From a virus (taxonomy: Duplodnaviria > Heunggongvirae > Uroviricota > Caudoviricetes): a stretch of DNA of 64,000 nt. A model generated the notes under the pieces. It did not search any database. It was not told the DNA's origin and worked only from the letters and a program-made list of their open reading frames with translations. The DNA lies in IMG/VR virus record IMGVR_UViG_2585427757_000006; one strand, given 5' to 3'. The stretch's first letter is position 1, and each line of letters begins with the position of its first letter. The position numbers and the translations under genes are program-made. Shown here one piece after another: positions 2,040 to 59,718 of this stretch.

Positions 2040-2760
2040 TCCAGAACGTTCTATACGGCGACTATTTCTGTTGGTGAATTGGGTGTGTTGTTCTCTCTGT
2101 CGGTGTATGTGGTTTCGTTCGTTTTGCGGTGGTTCTTCTATGGGGTGTTCTCGTCGTTTTGGTGATTGTTCTTCTCCGTGTATGGAGTAATGGCAGGGGG
2201 GCGATTCCTTTCGTTGTTGTGTTTGAGTTGTTTGTCTGGAGTGTGTGAAAGGCTTTTGCAGTTATTCGTGTATTGGGTAATGGCATTTCCCGTGATTGTT
2301 GTGTTTCGTGTCTTTTGGGATTGAGAGAAACCTTGCGGTTACAGGCTTCGTTGGGGTTTCAGTGATTCTGGTGTTCTTCGCTGTTTGGGGAATGGCGTGT
2401 CGTGGGTATCGCGCGTATGAATGTTTTCGGATTGCCTGTGAAAGTTAGGTTGGTTGTCCGGTAGCCTGGGGAGAAGAGGTGGGTCTTTTCGGTAGCCTGG
2501 GGAGAAGAGGTGGGTCTTTTCGGTAGCCTGCCATAAAGAGGTTGGTTGTTTTTGGAAATGGCATTTGTGTTATTTAGTTGTTTTGTTATGCCTGAAAATA
2601 AGTTGTTTATATGGTTGTGTAACGCAACGGGAGCGATTTTGAGCGTGTGTTTTTGTTGGTAGTGTGTTGGGTCGTCTGTGGTGAAAATTGGACGCTGTGG
2701 CGCTGTCTGCTGCGTAGAGTTACGGGTATAAGCAGTGATGTGTGAAAACGTCAATTTTTT
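2040..2760. repeat. GT-skewed degenerate repeat tract, non-coding
   Basis: Plus strand dominated by G and T, recurring units such as ggtaatggca; only low-complexity T/N/Q/P/K-rich ORFs. Confidence 0.5.
2459..2530. repeat. 31-bp direct tandem repeat, about 2.3 copies
   Basis: cggtagcctggggagaagaggtgggtctttt repeated exactly twice, then a partial third copy. Confidence 0.85.
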
Positions 2761-2963
2761 AGACCAAATCGGGTGAAAGCGTTGATGTTTCGTTGATCTG
2801 TTATTCAGTTGTTTTCTTGATTGTATAAACAACTATAGCTTATTGATATTTAAGGATGTGATTGCGGGTATGGAAGAAGAGTAGTGGCGATCAACGGATT
2901 CTTATAGAAAAGAATCAAATTGTGACCGCCATTATCAACTGATTGATTTGTTTACTTGTGTAG

Positions 2964-3362
2964 TCAGTTCTCGAAATGAATAGGGTCAACGTAATGCCGC
3001 TCACCGCTTTTACCATTACACAGCACTGTAACTTTCGCCTTTTCACTCCAGGCTGAGTATAGAAAGTTCCCATCAGGTTGAACATGGTAACGAGAGAAGT
3101 AAACATCGCCGACTGAGGCGTCGAACATGTTCCTATCTTTTTCACTTTGGGCAAGCGAGATGGATATCACCGAATTCCCATTTGGGGAAACGATTTTAAA
3201 TTTATTCCCTATATCCATAACAATATTGTAACCAGGTAATTGCTTGTGTGTTTCCGGATCTATTTTCATGCATCGTGGGTACACGATAGTGTTAGGCTCT
3301 TCAACTGGCGTGGCATTAGCAGAAAGCACAAAAAATATTAGTGCCAATGGTGCATATTTCAT
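2964..3362 (-). CDS. hypothetical secreted protein with N-terminal signal peptide
   Basis: 132-aa ORF, hydrophobic N-terminus MKYAPLALIFFVLSANA. Confidence 0.45.
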   Translation of the reverse strand: MKYAPLALIFFVLSANATPVEEPNTIVYPRCMKIDPETHKQLPGYNIVMDIGNKFKIVSPNGNSVISISLAQSEKDRNMFDASVGDVYFSRYHVQPDGNFLYSAWSEKAKVTVLCNGKSGERHYVDPIHFEN

Positions 3363-3656
3363 TTATCCCTCACAATTTCCAATTTTCCAGACCATCGTCT
3401 ATTTCAGCGTCAGGGTGGAATTGTACCGCATCAAATCCTACATCGAGCACCTTTCGAATGTTCTTGATGGTTTGCTATGTGACACCGTAATCACGCAGCT
3501 TTTCTTCCCTCCCCTGACTCCCCCATACTCCGTTTCTGTACCCAATTGAGTCCGAGATTGTATGGTGCTCGAAACAGATATTTGGTAGACACTCAGAGTC
3601 ATGCTGTGTAACGAGGGTAGGGCTACTAACTGTCGTCTTATACAATTTGGTGAGTT

Positions 3657-3905
3657 TCAGCATTTTACCACCCCGTTCGGAAACAACTCATTCGCCGTAG
3701 TTGATATAACCTCCCAATTAACGCCGACATCAGCGTTATGGCATTGTCTGATTTTTTGCATCACCTGTACGCATTGTTCATCAGTGAGATCTGTCCTTAC
3801 TTCAGCAATATCTTCTTTGTGCCACATAACCATGAGTAAGGGTTCGTCTTCTGGATAGTTTTTCAGTTTCTCGATGATTTCTTTTGCTGTTCCAAACATC
3901 TTCAT
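3657..3905 (-). CDS. hypothetical protein
   Basis: 82-aa ORF with SD ggag and the recurrent aaacaaNttgttttct motif directly upstream of its start. Confidence 0.5.
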   Translation of the reverse strand: MKMFGTAKEIIEKLKNYPEDEPLLMVMWHKEDIAEVRTDLTDEQCVQVMQKIRQCHNADVGVNWEVISTTANELFPNGVVKC

Positions 3906-4011
3906 CTCCTAAACAATTTGTTTTCTTATATGACTTATTATCTCAATCAACAAAAGGTAGAAAACAAATTGTTTTAGAGTTTGTTAAAGTCAGAAGGGGT
4001 TGTGTCTATAT

Positions 4012-4040
4012 GAAAATGCCCGGCGTGTTGCCGGGCATTG
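4012..4040 (-). terminator. rho-independent terminator downstream of metG
   Basis: GC hairpin gcccggc-loop-gccgggc followed by a T-run on the minus strand. Confidence 0.6.
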
Positions 4041-4058
4041 CGAAGAGAGGGTGTTTAA

Positions 4059-6092
4059 TTACTTAACCTGGTGGCCAGGTTTAGCACCAGCATCCGGGCT
4101 TAACAGGAAGATATCTTTCCCCCCGGGGCCAGCAGCCATTACCATGCCTTCGGAGATACCAAAGCGCATTTTACGCGGTGCCAGGTTGGCCACCATAATG
4201 GTGTGACGCCCGATCAGTGCCTGCGGATCTGGGTAGGCAGAACGAATACCGGAGAAGACATTGCGTTTTTCACCACCGAGATCCAGCGTCAGGCGAAGCA
4301 GTTTGTCAGAACCTTCTACAAACTCTGCGTTTTCAATCAGCGCCACGCGCAGGTCAACTTTGGCGAAGTCGTCAAAGGTGATAGTTTCCTGAATCGGGTC
4401 GTCAGCCAGTGGGCCAGTTACCGGTGCGGCTGTGGCTTTCACTTCTTCTTTGGATGCTTCCACCAGTGCTTCAACCTGCTTCATATCGATGCGGTTATAC
4501 AGTGCCTTGAACGGATTCACTTTATGGCCCAGCAGCGGTTGCTGGATACCATCCCAGGTCAGTTCTGTATTCAGGAATGCTTCTGCACGTTCAGTCAGTT
4601 TCGGCAGTACCGGTTTCAGGTACGTCATCAGCACGCGGAACAGGTTAATGCCCATAGAGCAAATCGCCTGCAGATCGGCATCGCGTCCTTCCTGCTTTGC
4701 CACCACCCACGGAGCCTGTTCATCAACATAGCGGTTAGCCAGGTCAGCCAGTGCCATGATTTCACGGATAGCTTTGCCAAATTCGCGGCTTTCCCATGCT
4801 TCGCCAATCACTTCAGCGGCATCAGTAAAGGTTTTGTACAGTTGCGGGTCAGCCAGTTCGCTTGCCAGCACGCCGTCAAAACGCTTGTTGATAAAGCCTG
4901 CATTACGGGAGGCCAGGTTAACCACTTTGTTAACGATATCGGCATTCACACGCTGAACGAAATCTTCCAGGTTGAGATCGATATCATCAATGCGCGAAGA
5001 GAGTTTCGCAGTGTAGTAGTAACGCAGGCTGTCGGCGTCAAAATGATTCAGCCAGGTGCTGGCTTTAATAAAGGTGCCGCGAGACTTGGACATCTTCGCG
5101 CCGTTCACCGTCACATAGCCGTGAACAAACAGGTTGGTCGGCTTGCGGAAGTTGCTGCCTTCCAGCATGGCAGGCCAGAACAGGCTGTGGAAGTAAACGA
5201 TATCTTTGCCGATGAAGTGGTACAGCTCGGCGGTGGAGTCTTTCTTCCAGTATTCGTCGAAGCTGGTAGTGTCGCCGCGTTTGTCGCACAGATTCTTGAA
5301 GGAACCCATGTAGCCAATCGGCGCGTCCAGCCAGACGTAGAAGTATTTGCCCGGTGCGTTCGGAATTTCAAAACCGAAGTAAGGTGCGTCACGGGAGATA
5401 TCCCACTGTTGCAGGCCAGATTCAAACCACTCCTGCATTTTGTTTGCCACCTGCTCCTGCAACGCACCGCTGCGGGTCCATGCCTGCAACATTTCGCTGA
5501 AAGAAGGCAGATCAAAGAAGAAGTGTTCGGAATCACGCATTACCGGTGTAGCGCCAGAAACCACTGATTTCGGCTCGATCAGTTCCGTCGGGCTGTATGT
5601 CGCGCCGCAGACTTCACAGTTATCGCCGTATTGATCCGGCGCTTTACATTTCGGGCATGTGCCTTTTACAAAACGGTCCGGCAGGAACATGCCTTTTTCC
5701 GGGTCGTACAGCTGAGAGATGGTGCGGTTTTTAATAAAACCGTTCTCTTTCAGGCGAGTATAGATAAGCTCGGACAACTGACGGTTCTCTTCGCTGTGCG
5801 TCGAGTGATAGTTGTCATAGCTGATGTTAAAGCCTGCGAAATCAGTCTGATGTTCCTGACTCATTTCGCCAATCATCTGTTCCGGTGTGATACCAAGCTG
5901 CTGTGCTTTCAGCATGATTGGCGTACCGTGGGCATCGTCGGCACAGATGAAATTAACCTCGTGGCCGCGCATTCGCTGGTAACGAACCCAGACATCAGCC
6001 TGGATGTGCTCCAGCATATGGCCGAGGTGGATTGAGCCGTTAGCGTACGGCAGCGCGCACGTCACCAGAATTTTCTTCGCGACTTGGGTCAT
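4059..6092 (-). CDS. metG: methionine--tRNA ligase
   Basis: 677-aa product from [40 protein letters not shown] motif, C-terminal tRNA-binding domain; start trimmed from track ORF to the conserved N-terminus. Confidence 0.95.
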
Positions 6093-6249
6093 AGTAGGCA
6101 TTACTTCTTTGTAGTGAAAAGGGGCTTGATAGTAACAAAATGGCCTTATGTCTGCCATGTGATAACAGCATTTCTCATAAATGATTAAATGTCGTAGCTG
6201 GAGTACACTACAAGGCGACAATTGCGCAAATTAAAATAAAGGAGACGGG

Positions 6250-7350
6250 ATGAGCGAGTCCAAATCGCCGGATGCCCTGAGAGCAATGGTAGCCGGTACG
6301 CTGGCTAATTTTCAGCACCCAACCCTGAAACACAACCTGACTACGCTTAAAGCGTTACACCATGTTGCGTTGATGGATGACACACTGCATGTCGAACTAA
6401 TCATGCCTTTCGTGTGGAATAAGCCTTTTGAAGACCTGAAAGAGCAATGTAGTGGTGATCTGCTCCGTATCACTGGCGCAAAGGCTATTGACTGGAAGCT
6501 GTCGTACAACATTGCCACGCTTAAGCGCGTCAAAAACCAACCAGGCATTAATGGCGTTAAGAACATTATCGCCGTCAGCTCAGGCAAGGGCGGCGTGGGT
6601 AAATCCTCCACGGCGGTAAACCTGGCACTGGCGTTGGCTGCTGAAGGTGCGAAAGTTGGTATTTTGGATGCCGATATCTATGGTCCATCAATTCCAACCA
6701 TGCTGGGCGCGGAAAACCAACGTCCAACCTCACCGGACGGTACTCACATGGCACCTATCATGTCTCATGGCCTGGCAACCAACTCTATTGGTTATCTGGT
6801 CACCGACGACAATGCAATGGTGTGGCGTGGACCGATGGCCAGCAAGGCGCTGATGCAGATGTTGCAGGAAACACTGTGGCCTGATCTGGACTATCTCGTT
6901 CTCGATATGCCACCGGGCACTGGTGATATTCAATTGACGCTGGCGCAGAACATTCCTGTAACTGGTGCGGTTGTGGTAACTACGCCGCAAGACATCGCGC
7001 TGATCGATGCGAAGAAAGGCATTGTGATGTTCGAAAAAGTCGAAGTGCCGGTACTGGGTATCGTTGAAAACATGAGTGTGCATATTTGCAGTAACTGCGG
7101 TCATCACGAGCCAATTTTTGGCACCGGTGGCGCACAGAAACTGGCCGAGAAATACAACACGCAGTTGTTAGGCCAAATGCCACTTCATATCTCTCTTCGT
7201 GAAGATCTGGATAACGGAACACCAACCGTTATTAGTCGTCCAGATAGTGAATTTACGGCTATTTATCGTGACCTCGCAGATCGCGTTGCTGCCCAAATGT
7301 ATTGGCAAGGTGAAGTAATACCTGGCGAAATCGCATTCCGCGCAGTGTGA
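6250..7350 (+). CDS. apbC: Fe-S cluster carrier ATPase ApbC/Mrp
   Basis: P-loop [16 protein letters not shown], CxxC motif CSNCGH, SD ggaga upstream; divergent from metG as in enterobacterial chromosomes. Confidence 0.93.
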
Positions 7351-7357
7351 TAAAAAG

Positions 7358-7486
7358 GTGGTGCTTTTGCCGTTACGCACCCCCCCGTCAGTAGCTGAAC
7401 AGGAGGGACAGCTGATAGAAACAGAAGCCACTGGAGCACCTCAAAAACACCATCATACACTAAATCAGTAAGTTGGCAGCATCACC
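7358..7486 (-). mobile_element. IS1 left-end remnant (inverted repeat plus first about 24 codons of insA), internally truncated
   Basis: Reverse complement reads ggtgatgctgccaacttactgatttagtgtatgatggtg, the IS1 terminal repeat; encoded [24 protein letters not shown] then breaks into apbC 3-prime flank. Confidence 0.8.
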
Positions 7487-7648
7487 GAGCGCCAGCGGCG
7501 AACATATGAGCTTCGGAAATACTAGACATTCTTAACTCCGTTGTTTTCTAGTTGTGGTTATTTTCACAAATAAGAAAAGATAGAAAACAATTTATTTAAG
7601 GCCACAACTTATGGCCTTTATTTATTCATGCCGAAGGATTTGTAGCGT

Positions 7649-8029
7649 CTAATTGCCGGATAAAATGGGGTGAGGTGCTTGCCAGTAGGCTCCACCGTTC
7701 CATGTGAACCCCATGCGAATAAGAGTGTTTATTGCGGCTTTGGTAGACTCCGATTCGACACTGGCTTTACGAAACTCTTGAACCTCTTTCGCCAACTTGT
7801 ATGTAATTGTGCAGGGGACGATTGCAGCCCAGCCTTTCTCATGACTGTTAATGACCATCTGGATGTGACCATCCAGAATAGGTTGATTAGGCATGTTATT
7901 GAAAATGTCTGCCTGTTTTTGAATGTGAAGAAAAAGCCTTGCCAGCGCCATTTGCTCACTACGAGACAAGGGATTATCAAGAGGGCTTTTTGCAAAAGCT
8001 GCTATACGCTGTGCATCAATGCCAAACAT
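7649..8029 (-). CDS. hypothetical protein
   Basis: 126-aa ORF; stop overlaps start region of upstream gene. Confidence 0.4.
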   Translation of the reverse strand: MFGIDAQRIAAFAKSPLDNPLSRSEQMALARLFLHIQKQADIFNNMPNQPILDGHIQMVINSHEKGWAAIVPCTITYKLAKEVQEFRKASVESESTKAAINTLIRMGFTWNGGAYWQAPHPILSGN

Positions 8030-8733
8030 CAGCGCACCTCACCATCTTTATGGCTGGAGTTAACTTCCGTCATTAAATGTCTGACGTAATCGACAAGAGA
8101 GCCGCCTGGTGGAATCTGGCATTCCTCAACTAACTGGAAGTAGATATCCGCTGCATTACGTGTATTGCTACCCGCGCATATTCTTTCTTCCCGAAGTGCA
8201 TGAAGCTCGTTGATCAAACGGTCACACTCTCCGTTACGCTGATCCACAACGGCCTCAAGCTCTGCGACGCGTTCACCTGGCGTCTTACCTTCTTTGCGTT
8301 GGATGGTAACGACGAAATCGCCAATTGCAGGGACGTTGTAATCCAGCTCAAGGTAGTTTTTGGCACCGCTGCGGACGAACTCACCCGCGAACATGGTGGC
8401 GAACATCGCAGAGGCCACTTCTCCGTTGAAAAGTGACTCCAGATCTAACGGAGTCCCGGCAGCAAGAGCCTCCTTTGCTGTATCCATTGCATCCATGAAC
8501 CGATCAAACTCACTAGCGCGCTTTTCCAGGTCTTTCCATTGCTCGCTCCAACGTTTGGCAACGAAGTCTATGAATGTTTTCGCGGATTCATCAAAATTCC
8601 CCTCAAACTTAACGATGCCTTTATCAATAATGATCTGGCCTACCGCATCCTCTGCATAACCTTTCAATGTAAACTTGAAAGGAAAATCGGAATGGCCTGT
8701 GACGTTAAAATGCTCTAACTGGAGGTTGCTCAT
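8029..8733 (-). CDS. hypothetical protein
   Basis: 234-aa ORF in compact operon. Confidence 0.45.
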   Translation of the reverse strand: MSNLQLEHFNVTGHSDFPFKFTLKGYAEDAVGQIIIDKGIVKFEGNFDESAKTFIDFVAKRWSEQWKDLEKRASEFDRFMDAMDTAKEALAAGTPLDLESLFNGEVASAMFATMFAGEFVRSGAKNYLELDYNVPAIGDFVVTIQRKEGKTPGERVAELEAVVDQRNGECDRLINELHALREERICAGSNTRNAADIYFQLVEECQIPPGGSLVDYVRHLMTEVNSSHKDGEVR

Positions 8734-8794
8734 GTGTTTTTCTCTTATCGTTTAGTAACTACATTCTTACATAAATTAAGTAAGCATTTACCTA

Positions 8795-10480
8795 TCATTT
8801 AACGCGTTTGAAAACGTATACGCTGACTGTGATCCCTGTGTCTTCAAACTCGTTGGTAAACGACTTCCCTCTGGCATAAACGTAATTATCCATCGTCATC
8901 CAGTCCAGTATTGGCGCAGTGCCCGGCAATACTGCTACAAGACGCCCGCCGACTTTCAGATGCCCCAGCGCAGCCAGCGTGTGCTCTCTATGACGACCAA
9001 GCGAGTACGGCGGGTTCATAACGATTTTGTCGAACTGATAACCTGCGTTGTCCTCAGACCACTTTATGAAGTCGCAGCAAATCGTGTTCGTATACCCTTT
9101 TCCACGCAGGATATCAGCGAAGAGAGGTGCGATTTCTATGCAGGTAACATCTTCCAGATCGGCGTCAATATAGGCCAGAAGATCCCCACGTCCGGCTTGA
9201 GGCTCCAACAGCTTCTCACCAGGCTTCAATTCAGTGGCTCTTGCAACGTACTCAGCAATCAAGCGTGGGGTAGGGTAGAACTGGTGTGATTTTGTATCCG
9301 GTATTAAACCGGTAGCCACAATCGTATTTAGCGTATGGCCGATGTCATACGGGAACTGCCAGTGCTTTTTCTCCTGCACGCCGCCAATGAAGCTCAGTGT
9401 GCGCTCAAGCTCTTCCACCTGCGACTTCTGGAGAGCTGAATCAGAGAAGTACCATACACCTTTGTCTTTGCTCAATCGCCCGTCACGAAGCGCAGTGCGA
9501 ACCGGCACGGAGATCGTCTTCTGGATTAAACCGAACTGCTTTGGTGCCCGTGTTTTTGGCGCAGTTCGGCATGGCGCGGGGATTGCAGCAGGCATACTGT
9601 AAGCCAGCACCTCATTCAACTTCCAGGCCACGTCAGGATGTATTTCAAAGTGAACGTTGCCGTTCTTGAACATCTTCACGCGCATCAGATTTCCATCGAC
9701 GTTCATCCAGTCACCGGTCTGGCAGTCGTTTGCCCGATACGCAGCTGATAGCACCTCAGCAGTGCGGTTGATGGTAATAAATTCTTTGTGCGCGAAGAAA
9801 TGAAGCAAGACACGCAGATCGTCGATGTAGTCCTCTTTGCGATAGTTCACGCTAACGCTGTCCCGCCAGAAATCAGAAATGCAGTCAGCGATTATCAGCC
9901 GCTCGCTGAAACCATTTGTCTTATTTGTCTTGTGCACAGGACTCAGCGCCTTAAACAAGCCATACACGCGCTCAGAGAGATATTTGTGCCTGTCATTCAG
10001 CAAATTAAGCATCGTGGGTATGACCGTTTCTGCTTTGAACTCCGGTACACCAACGAACTCTTTAACCTTCATCTGGTAGCCGGTTCTGTCAGTTTTGATG
10101 ACTTCCTGTTTGCCCTCTATAAACTGCTCGCGCCACTCATCTCGACGGGAAGCTGGCATGATCAGCAAAACGTTAGTCATGTCCGTGACCTTCCTCCAGT
10201 ACTCGGCCCAAATATTCTGTTTCACCCATTCCAGATCGACTTTATCCAACCAACCTCGATTTAAACGCGAGCGATCTTCATCTGGTCGATGGTTTAGTCT
10301 CAGCAGGCGATTAATCATGTTGTGGCGTTCGTCGCCATAAACGAAGTCGTGTACCTGATACATGAAGGCGATCTCTTTCTCGCACTCGGCCACAATTTCG
10401 TGGATAACGTTCATTTCCTGACGATAATCGATAGCAGTGTTTGAGCTGGCATCGTCGATGATGGAAAGGGCTGTATTCAT
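8795..10480 (-). CDS. putative SAM-dependent N6-adenine methyltransferase with large N-terminal domain of unknown function
   Basis: C-terminal FYPTP, LEPQAGRGDLL (motif I-like) and NPPY (motif IV) in 561-aa protein. Confidence 0.55.
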   Translation of the reverse strand: MNTALSIIDDASSNTAIDYRQEMNVIHEIVAECEKEIAFMYQVHDFVYGDERHNMINRLLRLNHRPDEDRSRLNRGWLDKVDLEWVKQNIWAEYWRKVTDMTNVLLIMPASRRDEWREQFIEGKQEVIKTDRTGYQMKVKEFVGVPEFKAETVIPTMLNLLNDRHKYLSERVYGLFKALSPVHKTNKTNGFSERLIIADCISDFWRDSVSVNYRKEDYIDDLRVLLHFFAHKEFITINRTAEVLSAAYRANDCQTGDWMNVDGNLMRVKMFKNGNVHFEIHPDVAWKLNEVLAYSMPAAIPAPCRTAPKTRAPKQFGLIQKTISVPVRTALRDGRLSKDKGVWYFSDSALQKSQVEELERTLSFIGGVQEKKHWQFPYDIGHTLNTIVATGLIPDTKSHQFYPTPRLIAEYVARATELKPGEKLLEPQAGRGDLLAYIDADLEDVTCIEIAPLFADILRGKGYTNTICCDFIKWSEDNAGYQFDKIVMNPPYSLGRHREHTLAALGHLKVGGRLVAVLPGTAPILDWMTMDNYVYARGKSFTNEFEDTGITVSVYVFKRVK

Positions 10481-20981: not shown

Positions 20982-22124
20982 TTACAGGTCTGCAAACTGG
21001 CTTAGAGAAGCCTTATCCACGGTAGAATCGATCTGACCTACCAGATATGTGCTTTGCTCTGCCTCTTGTGGTGCAATTTGCAGTGTGTCGGTTAACAACC
21101 ACTTGTTCATCCAGACCAGCGGATCAGTGGTAACTTCTGGAAATAAAGCCTTCAGGCCAAGACGATTCATAGCCAGATTGGTGCGGTATTTTACATAGGT
21201 TTTGAGAATATCCGCGTTTAAACCAATCATCGAACCGTCTTTGAAGAGATAGTCTGCCCAGTTCATTTCTTGTTCGGCGACTGATTTCATGGTGTCGTAA
21301 ATGACGTTTTCTTCATCAGCAGCAATCTCTTTCCACAATAAACCTTCGCGACCGGTACGCATGAAGCGGATCATGCGTTCAGTTCCTTCGCAATGCAGAG
21401 CTTCATCACGGGCAATAAAGCGCATAATTTTGGTGTTACCCTCAAGCAACTTCCGTTCACCAAAGGCAAACGTACATGCAAAACTTACGTAGAAACGGAT
21501 CGCCTCAAGCGCATTAATGGACACCAACGTGCGGAAAAGCTGACGATGCAAAGGGTATGGCTCCCAGCCATATTCATTTACGTACAGACGCTCAAATTCC
21601 TTCTCACCTAACGACTGGCGCTCGCAGGTCATCCCATAAAGCCTGTCATATTCAGCAGAGATACTGATCGCTCGGTTGATGATTTCTTCATCCGTAACAA
21701 TGCCGTCAAAAACAATGCTCGGATCGTCCACCATGCCACGAATAATGTGGGTGTAGCTGCGGCTATGGATAGTCTCAGAGAAAGACCACGTTTCAACCCA
21801 CGTTTCCAGTTCAGGAATAGAGATAAGCGGCAGCAGCGTTGCATTTGGACTACGTCCCTGAACTGAATCGAGTAACGTTTGATAACGGAGATTGCTCAGA
21901 AAAATGTGACGTTCGTGGTCCCGCAGCTTCGTGTTGAAGTCGATACGATCGCTCGAAATATCAACTTCTTCCGGCCGCCAGAAGAAAGACAATTGACGTT
22001 CAATCAACTTTTCAAAATCACGGTATTTTTGCTGATCGTAACGTGCCACGTTGACAGATTGTCCGAGGAACATAGGCTCTTTGGTTGCATCATTAGCACC
22101 CAAACGGAACGTTGAATATGACAT
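20982..22124 (-). CDS. nrdB: ribonucleotide reductase class Ia beta subunit
   Basis: Diiron ligand pattern incl. EAIRFYVSF and ARDEALH; C-terminal tail; 380 aa. Confidence 0.9.
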
Positions 22125-22189
22125 GTGTTTTTCCTTTTTCTTTTTTGGTGCGTTTAAACAAGTTGTTATCTTATGTGTTTAAACAAGGC

Positions 22190-30140: not shown

Positions 30141-30365
30141 TTATTCACATATCCACAGGATAGATCCTAATAAAGAGATCCATAGATAGATCCTTATATA
30201 GATCAAATAAGATCCCCGATCGCTGTAAGCCGCGCCACGACTGGTCTGAAGTCATGTTCATGTATGCTGTCAGCGGTAATTGATAGTCTGTCAGCGGTTC
30301 ACCGTATGCTGCCAACTGTTTTTGGTATTCTGTCAGCGGCAAATCAAGTATGCTGTCAGCGGTTG
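30141..30365 (+). promoter_or_regulatory. plasmid replication origin (oriR-like): DnaA-box-like 9-mers, GATC cluster, five iterons
   Basis: ttattcaca and atatccaca 9-mers; six GATC within 30160-30222 in agatcc heptamers; five copies of atgctgtcagcggt-like iteron up to the repA SD. Confidence 0.75.
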
Positions 30366-59160: not shown

Positions 59161-59247
59161 TGGCGGAGAGTAATGGAATCGAACCATCATCGCTTGCGCA
59201 ATGGGACGGTTTTCAAGACCGCTTGAGCACCATGCTCCCTACTCTCC
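59161..59247 (-). tRNA. tRNA-Ser(UGA), type II with long variable arm, CCA encoded
   Basis: Acceptor ggagagt/actctcc, anticodon loop cttgaaa, T-loop ttcgatt; D-loop unusually short. Confidence 0.6.
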
Positions 59248-59471
59248 GGCCGTTGTGGTGGCCGGTACTGAATCTCCGGCATACGGTGCAGCCAATTAGG
59301 ACTACGGACGATCACCGCTCGCGAAAGGGAAGATTTGCGGCCGCATTTCCCTAACATCCAAGAAAGCTATCGCATCAGTCTGCGAATCCACCACAACGGT
59401 AAGATCACTACCTTTCGACCAGTCATTGTGCACATGAACGACGATTAACCGTAATGATCTTATCGTTGTAT

Positions 59472-59547
59472 TGGTGCCGGTTAGCGGACTCGAACCGCTG
59501 ACATCCTGCTTACAAGGCAGGCGCTCTACCAACTGAGCTAAACCGGC
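59472..59547 (-). tRNA. tRNA-Thr(UGU), CCA encoded
   Basis: gccggtttagctcagttggtagagc D-arm, anticodon loop cttgtaa, T-loop ttcgagt. Confidence 0.75.
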
Positions 59548-59551
59548 AATT

Positions 59552-59638
59552 TGGTGGGGAGTGATGGAGTCGAACCACCCGAGTCGCAATGACAGTAGAT
59601 TTACAGTCTACCCCGCTGCCCCTACGGACTAACTCCCC
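59552..59638 (-). tRNA. tRNA-Tyr(GUA), long variable arm, CCA encoded
   Basis: Acceptor ggggagt/actcccc, anticodon stem gtaga/tctac with loop ctgtaaa, T-loop ttcgact. Confidence 0.65.
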
Positions 59639-59643
59639 TAAAT

Positions 59644-59718
59644 TGGCGATGGTGGGTGGATTCGAACCACCGACCAGTTGGTTAACAGCCAACTGCTCTA
59701 CCGCTGAGCTACACCATC
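59644..59718 (-). tRNA. tRNA-Asn(GUU), CCA encoded
   Basis: Acceptor gatggtg/caccatc, D-arm gctcagcggtagagc, anticodon loop ctgttaa, T-loop ttcgaat. Confidence 0.75.

Follow-up and report, generated by a model that had tools for sequence, protein, structure and literature searches.

Genes for aminoacyl-tRNA synthetases are known from viruses and huge phages, an example being the methionyl-tRNA synthetase (MetRS) of mimivirus. Mobile second synthetase genes are known as well, such as mupA and mupB, whose isoleucyl-tRNA synthetases (IleRS) give inhibitor resistance. The subject here is metG, the MetRS gene, and its divergent neighbor apbC in a 64,000-nucleotide stretch of viral DNA (IMG/VR record IMGVR_UViG_2585427757_000006). 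This whole stretch is called the window, and coordinates are window positions unless another record is named. Among the closest described systems are the SSU5-like phage-plasmids. Cyrano (the pLF82 plasmid) is SSU5-like, produces virions and is present at 5.5 copies per chromosome in LF82 (PMC9928086). Its apbC homologue (CYRAN_99) is listed as a moron in LF82 lysogen transcriptomes, at 9-fold over background (PMC9928086). The metG-apbC pair of the window is read here, with a probability of about 85%, as an inherited, functional cargo module of Escherichia SSU5-like phage-plasmids, and the IS1 stump beside it as a later deletion scar. An earlier note on this DNA had instead offered IS1-mediated capture from a host chromosome, with a deletion scar as one listed alternative.

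The metG-apbC block in phage-plasmids

Positions 3000-8600 are 99.8% identical to the Escherichia coli plasmid pSTEC388_1 and 97-98% identical to many non-mobilizable E. coli plasmids of 107-115 kb. The Escherichia phages Cyrano, CMS-2020a and PhiR41_1 also match this region. The backbone genes are in the same order as in Salmonella phage SSU5, with 74-87% DNA identity (HD, Eaa-like and DUF4942 region). Because of the matches to pSTEC388_1, Cyrano, CMS-2020a and PhiR41_1 and the SSU5 backbone synteny the window is classed as an Escherichia SSU5-like phage-plasmid. From pSTEC388_1 it differs by 21 substitutions across 2500-9000 and by a rearranged distal part.

The block at 3906-7364 has the same end points and 96-97.5% identity in Cyrano, p88COLEC-2, pDETEC87 and pM-199-4197. 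In all four the S24-peptidase gene directly follows apbC and IS1 is absent there. Some database entries submitted as phage genomes contain the block too, among them PhiR41_1, which was propagated on K-12. The allele of the intergenic region plus apbC is held at 95% identity or more by 189 PLSDB plasmids from E. coli, E. albertii, E. fergusonii, E. marmotae and Shigella, and the next matches are at most 83% identical. In 5,426 complete E. coli genomes metG was found in 5,424 chromosomal and 220 plasmid places, and all chromosomal copies were 93.6-94.6% identical to window metG. In phage SSU5 the pair is absent and the slot is filled by different small genes. The pair is annotated in hundreds of public records; no discussion of it was found in the searched open-access literature.

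Homology to the E. coli chromosome is trimmed almost exactly to the two genes (4058-6143 at 94.3% and 6257-7343 at 83.2%). The 165 nt downstream of metG matched only elements when compared to all loci, with no match in E. coli, E. albertii, Citrobacter or the 80 Enterobacteriaceae loci described below. A hairpin at 4012-4040, which had been described as the intact terminator of the housekeeping gene, is real (10-bp stem, -19.1 kcal/mol, z = -5.2, followed by UUUUCAU); there being no chromosomal match downstream of the metG stop, it is not the chromosomal metG terminator. The left flank was tested against the chromosome, and 2500-3975 matched phage-plasmid relatives and not chromosomal DNA, in agreement with the earlier assignment of this flank to the element.

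Both genes are full-length. MetG scores 1019.8 bits against the NCBIfam equivalog NF001100 (cut-off 587) over residues 4-677, and its C-terminal tRNA-binding domain scores 163 bits (TIGR00399). The HIGH motif (as HLGH, residues 21-24), the KMSKS motif at 333 and the zinc knuckle CPKC...CEVC are intact. ApbC scores 759.3 bits against the equivalog NF008669 (cut-off 348) and has an intact deviant Walker A motif (GKGGVGKS, residue 112) and CxxC motif (CSNC, residue 280). By these family scores and motifs the predicted products are canonical enzymes.

The pair is not identical to that of the host. Compared to E. coli, metG has an identity of 99.1% at the amino acid and 94.4% at the nucleotide level; for apbC the values are 95 and 83%, respectively. 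Synonymous (dS) and non-synonymous (dN) divergence was calculated by the Nei-Gojobori method. Between window and E. coli dS was 0.28 and dN 0.005 for metG, and 1.40 and 0.030 for apbC, giving a dN/dS ratio (omega) of approximately 0.02 for each gene. The dS between E. coli and Salmonella is 0.93 for metG and 1.38 for apbC. Within the element clade omega is 0.005-0.014 for metG, while for apbC dN is 0-0.002 against a dS of 0.03-0.11; among element copies of the two genes omega ranges from 0 to 0.02. Across 11 element copies of metG synonymous variation occurs at 174 codons and amino acid variation at 13. The 99% amino acid identity to E. coli and an omega of approximately 0.01-0.02 suggest that the MetRS encoded by the element is an aminoacylating enzyme. 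No substitution specific to the element was found in comparison to Escherichia chromosomal MetRS. ApbC has 17, mainly at the termini. The GC content at third codon positions (GC3) is 0.61 for metG and 0.52 for apbC, compared to 0.63 for each in E. coli.

The 157-bp region between the genes is identical in 13 of 14 phage-plasmid copies, while the flanking genes vary at 7-10% of sites. This invariance gives indirect support to a possible moron status, and metG and apbC are probably each transcribed from a promoter of their own. The 50 bp nearest metG are Escherichia-like. The half nearest apbC has a "long form" of approximately 25 nt which is absent from Escherichia and about 71% shared with the Citrobacter freundii complex and S. 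diarizonae.

The likeliest role of the pair would be added MetRS and iron-sulfur (Fe-S) carrier capacity at plasmid copy number, as judged from the sequences. Such a role would fit the host-like nrdAB, thyA, dfrA51, rnhA and grxA genes of related plasmids. Two other roles were considered. A resistant-variant MetRS was rejected due to the lack of element-specific substitutions. Addiction through an essential gene, in which carriers would lose the chromosomal metG, was rejected on the 5,424 chromosomal metG places in 5,426 genomes.

The IS1 stump beside apbC

The sequence after apbC had been recognized as an IS1 left-end remnant, and this was confirmed. Positions 7357-7486 are 98.5% identical to the IS1 of phage P1 and start 4-8 bp past the TGA-TAA stops of apbC. 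The outer (right) end carries the terminal inverted repeat GGTGATGCTGCCAACTTACTGAT. In alignment with the complete IS1A of locus L004 approximately 130 of 768 bp are left, without the right repeat and without insB. The sequence is, on this alignment, classed as a remnant that is inactive as an insertion sequence (IS). It has a private A-to-C change at 7382.

On the left the match to phage-plasmids runs up to 7364 while that to IS1 starts at 7357, an overlap of 8 bp. On the right the window from 7487 onward corresponds to pM-199-4197 from 8055 onward, at about codon 14 of an HD-domain gene (7456-8097, minus strand, in that plasmid locus). More than 50 relatives have this gene whole, as does SSU5 (SSU5_099). 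The stump replaces positions 4960-8054 of the pM-199-4197 locus (approximately 3.1 kb). Lost with this segment were the gene for the S24 peptidase, three unnamed genes and the larger part of the HD gene. The loss of DNA that is present in relatives bears out the deletion scar. The motif copies to the right of the stump had been described as orphaned, with no gene attached. They are the putative promoter cassette of the HD gene, of which 14 codons are left.

The two stump junctions are found in one and the same set of 7 PLSDB plasmids, and 8 of the 5,426 complete E. coli genomes have the apbC-IS1 junction. The stump was left by a later deletion, confined to a rare sub-lineage, and has no connection to the acquisition of metG-apbC. 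The junctions are observed directly, and the order of events is proposed as follows. IS1 would have inserted at about codon 14 of the HD-domain gene in a minor sub-lineage. A microhomology deletion from the IS1 interior to the apbC terminator stem, across the 8-bp overlap, would then have cost the element about 640 bp of IS1 and about 3.1 kb of its own DNA.

In relatives apbC ends at the stem GGCGGTGC-ATT-GCACCGCC, a bidirectional apbC/S24 terminator. This native terminator was destroyed by the deletion in the window lineage. Because of its loss apbC transcripts would run through the IS1 stump to the hairpin at 7598-7618. The stump also retains a promoter-like CTGCCA-16-TATGAT on the minus strand and the insA start, giving a 65-amino acid open reading frame (ORF; 7460 to 7263) antisense into the 3' end of apbC. 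Antisense transcription into apbC could result in the window sub-lineage. The S24 (LexA-like) peptidase gene was also lost from this lineage, which might have an effect on SOS induction.

Origin of the pair and alternative explanations

A donor was sought with ApbC in one genome per species across 100,044 species, giving 80 Enterobacteriaceae loci. The best apbC identity among these was 83.2% in nucleotides and 95% in amino acids. In neighbor-joining (NJ) trees the element clade of metG (94% support) falls inside Escherichia (100%). For apbC the element clade (100%) is the long-branch sister of all Escherichia, with 96% support on all sites. The dN of apbC to outgroups is 0.057-0.060 for the element and 0.040-0.044 for E. 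coli. From these values the element branch is approximately three times faster, and the split is placed near the base of the genus Escherichia and not at the Salmonella split.

Exact identity tracts with chromosomal alleles were found in the metG of two relatives. In pM-199-4197 a tract of 527 bp is identical to a non-coli Escherichia allele (E69) and is followed by a tract of 245 bp identical to an E. coli allele; in pDETEC87 one tract of 245 bp is identical to a chromosomal allele. In 5000 codon shuffles, tracts as long as these arose 0, 0 and 2 times, respectively. This indicates gene conversion with chromosomal metG in these relatives. The longest tract in apbC is at most 80 bp, in Cyrano. 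The pattern fits recombination that is possible at approximately 6% divergence and not at approximately 17%.

In the favored history a single capture brought in both genes along with the divergent promoter region between them. The source would be a chromosome of the Escherichia lineage, no later than the time when the genus radiated. The chromosomal origin of the pair, stated in the earlier note, would in this sense be retained, as the genes are ultimately enterobacterial. The captured DNA would have been trimmed to the two genes, fitted with element-specific terminators and placed in a variable-cargo slot between promoter/operator cassettes. Since then apbC would have drifted, with its GC3 falling from 0.63 to 0.52 and a non-synonymous rate approximately 3 times that of the chromosomal lineage. 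metG would have stayed within the allele range of the genus, and recombination with the resident chromosomal metG may contribute.

Several points weigh against this history. No donor genome was found in the ApbC scan of 100,044 species, and because of this age is confounded with rate. The trees were constructed by NJ only, and the support joining element apbC to Escherichia was only 56% on codon positions 1 and 2. In a relative-rate comparison the element apbC branch was approximately 3 times faster, with dS near saturation. Compared to a small number of chromosomal alleles, the window's own metG had no significant tract of identity, and the gene conversion indicated by the tracts applies to relatives and not to the window copy. 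metG is absent from the listed Cyrano morons in the LF82 transcriptomes (PMC9928086). A search for an intermediate in which the HD gene still carries a complete IS1 found none.

In the capture proposed by the earlier note, IS1 transposition or cointegrate resolution would recently have moved approximately 3.3 kb of host chromosome and left the stump at the right border. The closeness of the IS1 end to the apbC stop and a synteny identical to that of the chromosome, in a pair of chromosomal type, are what speak for it. It is nonetheless very improbable, and is already refuted by the IS1-free relatives which share the same block and the same ends. The eight genomes with the stump junction compare to approximately 220 plasmid-borne metG copies. 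There is no IS1 sequence to the left of metG, no second IS1 and no flanking target duplication, and the left border is an element cassette conserved in SSU5. The outer IS1 end adjoins the HD gene of the element and not chromosomal DNA, and the inner end is a break within IS1 and not a transposition product. A recent host source conflicts with the chromosomes themselves, as no E. coli chromosome exceeds 94.6% identity in metG and all are at about 83% in apbC. A chimeric assembly, formed through repeated metG or IS1, has a negligible chance of accounting for the chromosome-like block or its junctions. Draft contigs with hybrid metG (L088, L091 and L096) indicate that metG can mislead assemblers or mediate real cointegration. 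The same arrangement is present, however, in complete circular plasmids of approximately 107-115 kb from many hosts and countries, and 7-8 complete plasmids, assembled independently and from different hosts, contain both junctions of the stump. The element allele differs from every chromosome and is not explained by misplaced chromosomal reads. The misassembly that the earlier note had wished to check is thereby excluded.

Two further explanations accept the pair as resident in the element. It may be kept as a patch of homology for recombination with the chromosome (integration, Hfr-like mobilization or allele shuttling) and not for its enzymes. The identity tracts with chromosomal alleles, the crossover of the hybrid metG contigs in the most conserved part of the gene and the few element copies on chromosome-sized contigs point that way. 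This explanation is unlikely given the strong purifying selection on both proteins within the element clade, reading frames that are intact everywhere seen, an invariant promoter region and the lack of the hybrid junction in the 5,426 complete genomes. At 83% identity apbC is also a poor substrate for recombination and yet encodes the better conserved protein. A two-step origin is possible, although doubtful. Here apbC and its proximal promoter would stem from an old capture (stem-Escherichia or an unsampled Citrobacter-like donor), and metG with its proximal promoter would later have been replaced wholesale from crown Escherichia by homologous recombination, without small-patch conversion. 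The divergence changes abruptly inside the intergenic region, from 94% identity up to 6143 to sequence that cannot be aligned to Escherichia. The sharing of the apbC-proximal long form with the Citrobacter freundii complex, the un-ameliorated GC3 of metG (0.61, compared to 0.52 for apbC) and the grouping of the element metG clade as sister to the single non-coli allele E69 (86%) are also consistent with two steps. However, apbC groups with Escherichia (96%) and not with Citrobacter, the long form may simply be ancestral, and the mosaic tracts of pM-199-4197 and pDETEC87 are examples of patchwise exchange. The two-step origin overlaps the single capture of an inherited cargo module and does not exclude it.

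Neighboring features and comparison with known systems

The coordinates of the features around metG-apbC are collected in Table 1. The palindromic motif AAACAANTTGTTTTCT has 14 matches (at most 2 mismatches) at 10 loci in the window compared to 0.34 expected, which upholds the earlier observation of a recurrent motif at about ten gene starts. The majority are located 10-35 nt ahead of a start codon on the minus strand. Phage SSU5 has 14 matches in 18 kb compared to 0.08 expected. Read on the gene strand, the cassette to the left of metG consists of a distal palindrome, 32 bp with a sigma-70-like TTGTTG-17-TATAAG, a proximal palindrome, a ribosome-binding site and an ATG. It is 87-89% identical to an SSU5 cassette (5505-5572 of the SSU5 locus). 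This layout suggests that the AAACAANTTGTTTTCT cassettes are operator-flanked promoters heading each small transcription unit.

The motif had been reported on both flanks of the pair. Element cassettes are indeed present on both sides, while the copy at 7538-7553 is just a half-site (TTGTTTTCT at 7541). The right cassette is homologous to that upstream of the HD gene in pM-199-4197 and SSU5. In Cyrano and pM-199-4197 another gene, of 300 bp, takes the place of the DUF1380 gene, and homology to both begins exactly at 3906. Mosaic breakpoints between relatives coincide with cassettes (3906 and 7555); therefore the cassettes bound cargo slots, one of which is filled by metG-apbC.

Table 1. Features of the window around metG-apbC.
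Feature	Position	Strand	Basis or detail
DUF1380-family gene, variable neighbor immediately downstream of the metG block	3657-3905	-	ORF and annotation
Putative backbone promoter/operator cassette	3906-3978	-	Two inverted AAACAANTTGTTTTCT copies (3911-3926, 3959-3974)
Intrinsic-terminator-like hairpin 3' of metG, element-specific	4012-4040	-	Folding; conserved in relatives
metG, methionine-tRNA ligase, 677 amino acids	4059-6092	-	NF001100 equivalog
Divergent metG/apbC regulatory region, 157 bp	6093-6249		Near-invariant in phage-plasmid copies
apbC (mrp), iron-sulfur cluster carrier ATPase, 366 amino acids	6250-7350	+	NF008669 equivalog
Deletion junction, 8-bp overlap AGGTGGTG	7357-7364		Common to the left arm of the apbC terminator stem and the IS1 interior
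IS1 stump: left inverted repeat, promoter region and first ~24 insA codons; outer end faces right	7357-7486	-	98.5% identical to IS1 of phage P1
5' remnant (14 codons) of HD-domain gene (guanosine polyphosphate pyrophosphohydrolase-like)	7487-7529	-	Cut by IS1
Putative promoter/operator cassette of the truncated HD gene	7538-7597	-	Half-site 7538-7553 proximal, full site 7582-7597 distal
Hairpin ending a 126-amino acid gene (minus strand); also predicted first site for apbC read-through (plus strand)	7598-7618		Terminator-like site

Some further records join element and chromosomal DNA. Three draft or metagenome contigs of 370-570 kb (L088, L091 and L096) join the chromosomal DUF4132 gene, a hybrid metG, the element apbC and element genes. 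In the hybrid metG (3810-5843 of these loci) the 5' end resembles the element copy and the 3' end the chromosomal one; the crossover falls near nt 1000-1100, where the gene is most conserved. Real metG cointegrates were considered and set aside. The hybrids come from three draft/metagenome assemblies, the hybrid junction was found in 0 of the 5,426 complete genomes, and they are treated as probable assembly chimeras or rare events. The exact element ApbC protein is also encoded on three chromosome-sized records, namely L089 (a 4.89-Mb contig), L093 (CP043541.1, 5.57 Mb) and L094 (a 2.7-Mb contig). L094 has lambda-like tail genes and a 770-amino acid ORF at the expected metG position. These copies could be integrated or recombinant elements, or mis-joined assemblies. 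In the unannotated record of Pseudomonas phage Y5 (OQ572407.1) a stretch of 636 bp (21501-22133) is 76.5% identical to the middle of metG, and this may be a further metG carried by a phage.

The closest complete plasmid is NZ_CP041426.1 (L098), which has many IS hits: its DNA ligase gene is split by IS5, its 5'-3' exonuclease gene is cut by IS100, and an IS911 remnant is present. Its cargo includes dfrA51, nrdAB, thyA, rnhA, grxA and a type I restriction-modification system. Beyond approximately 44.6 kb the window is rearranged or inverted in comparison to this plasmid. A 33-bp segment inside the DUF4942 gene (9773-9805) is 100% identical to an annotated CRISPR feature of the E. coli AST85 chromosome (NZ_AP043644.1, 2998337-2998369), likely a spacer against the Escherichia SSU5-like phage-plasmid family. 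A tRNA cluster on the minus strand (59161-59718) comprises Ser-tga, Thr-tgt, Tyr-gta and Asn-gtt. An Rfam scan of the window reported tRNAs only, among them 3 of these 4 genes. An ORF-poor stretch at approximately 1900-2900 has a strong GC skew of 0.37 and an AT skew of -0.34, and contains a 31-bp tandem repeat (2.3-2.8 copies) at 2459-2546. Tandem repeats of 26 bp and 42 bp at 30151-30363 are located just upstream of and overlapping the start of a RepB-family replication initiator gene, as positioned from a related record. They look like iterons.

Approximately 1 in 25 complete E. coli genomes has a second metG and apbC borne by a phage-plasmid. The second metG is relevant to metG-based typing, read mapping, assembly and studies which tie MetRS activity to persistence or inhibitors. 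An IS end beside host-like genes is insufficient by itself to infer IS-mediated capture. Within one 3.3-kb block metG lies inside the genus with conversion tracts, compared to an ameliorated apbC outside it, and divergence may thus gate recombination between element and host. A wider proposal is put forward tentatively. A phage-plasmid lineage may have carried the host pair since about the origin of Escherichia, with metG in ongoing conversion with the resident chromosome, shuttling metG between species and raising MetRS and ApbC dosage in approximately 4% of E. coli strains. If so, the raised dosage might affect MetRS-dependent traits such as antibiotic persistence and sensitivity to MetRS inhibitors, and the element's own tRNA-acetylating toxin might also be buffered.

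The stump resembles IS1-associated deletions in having a genuine IS1 left end and loss of adjacent DNA. Classical adjacent deletions start at the IS end and leave the IS whole, whereas here one breakpoint is approximately 130 bp inside IS1 at an 8-bp overlap with the target. This fits illegitimate (microhomology) recombination rather than transposase action. The SSU5/pHCM2-like phage-plasmids share the backbone synteny and the enriched operator-like motif with the window, while metG-apbC is restricted to the Escherichia/Shigella branch.

As with mupA and mupB, an extra synthetase gene is carried on a mobile element besides the chromosomal copy. The element MetRS has no distinguishing substitution however, and any effect would be one of dosage and not of an insensitive variant. 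As with other viral synthetases, MetRS is encoded on a viral genome alongside tRNA genes (Ser, Thr, Tyr and Asn). It differs from these in being a near-copy of the host-genus enzyme on a temperate phage-plasmid of approximately 110 kb, and no tRNA-Met partner is present in the tRNA set of the window. metG travels with apbC because of chromosomal synteny only.

A further likeness is to prophage morons and the host-derived auxiliary genes of temperate phages. The pair is host-derived and lies between phage transcription units with its own promoter region and terminators, and relatives of the window also carry host-like nrdAB, thyA, the dfrA51 dihydrofolate reductase gene, rnhA and grxA. It differs from prophage morons in that the cargo is an essential aminoacyl-tRNA synthetase, 99% identical in amino acids to that of the host, and not a virulence, defense or niche factor, and in that metG-apbC was apparently kept since about the origin of the host genus.

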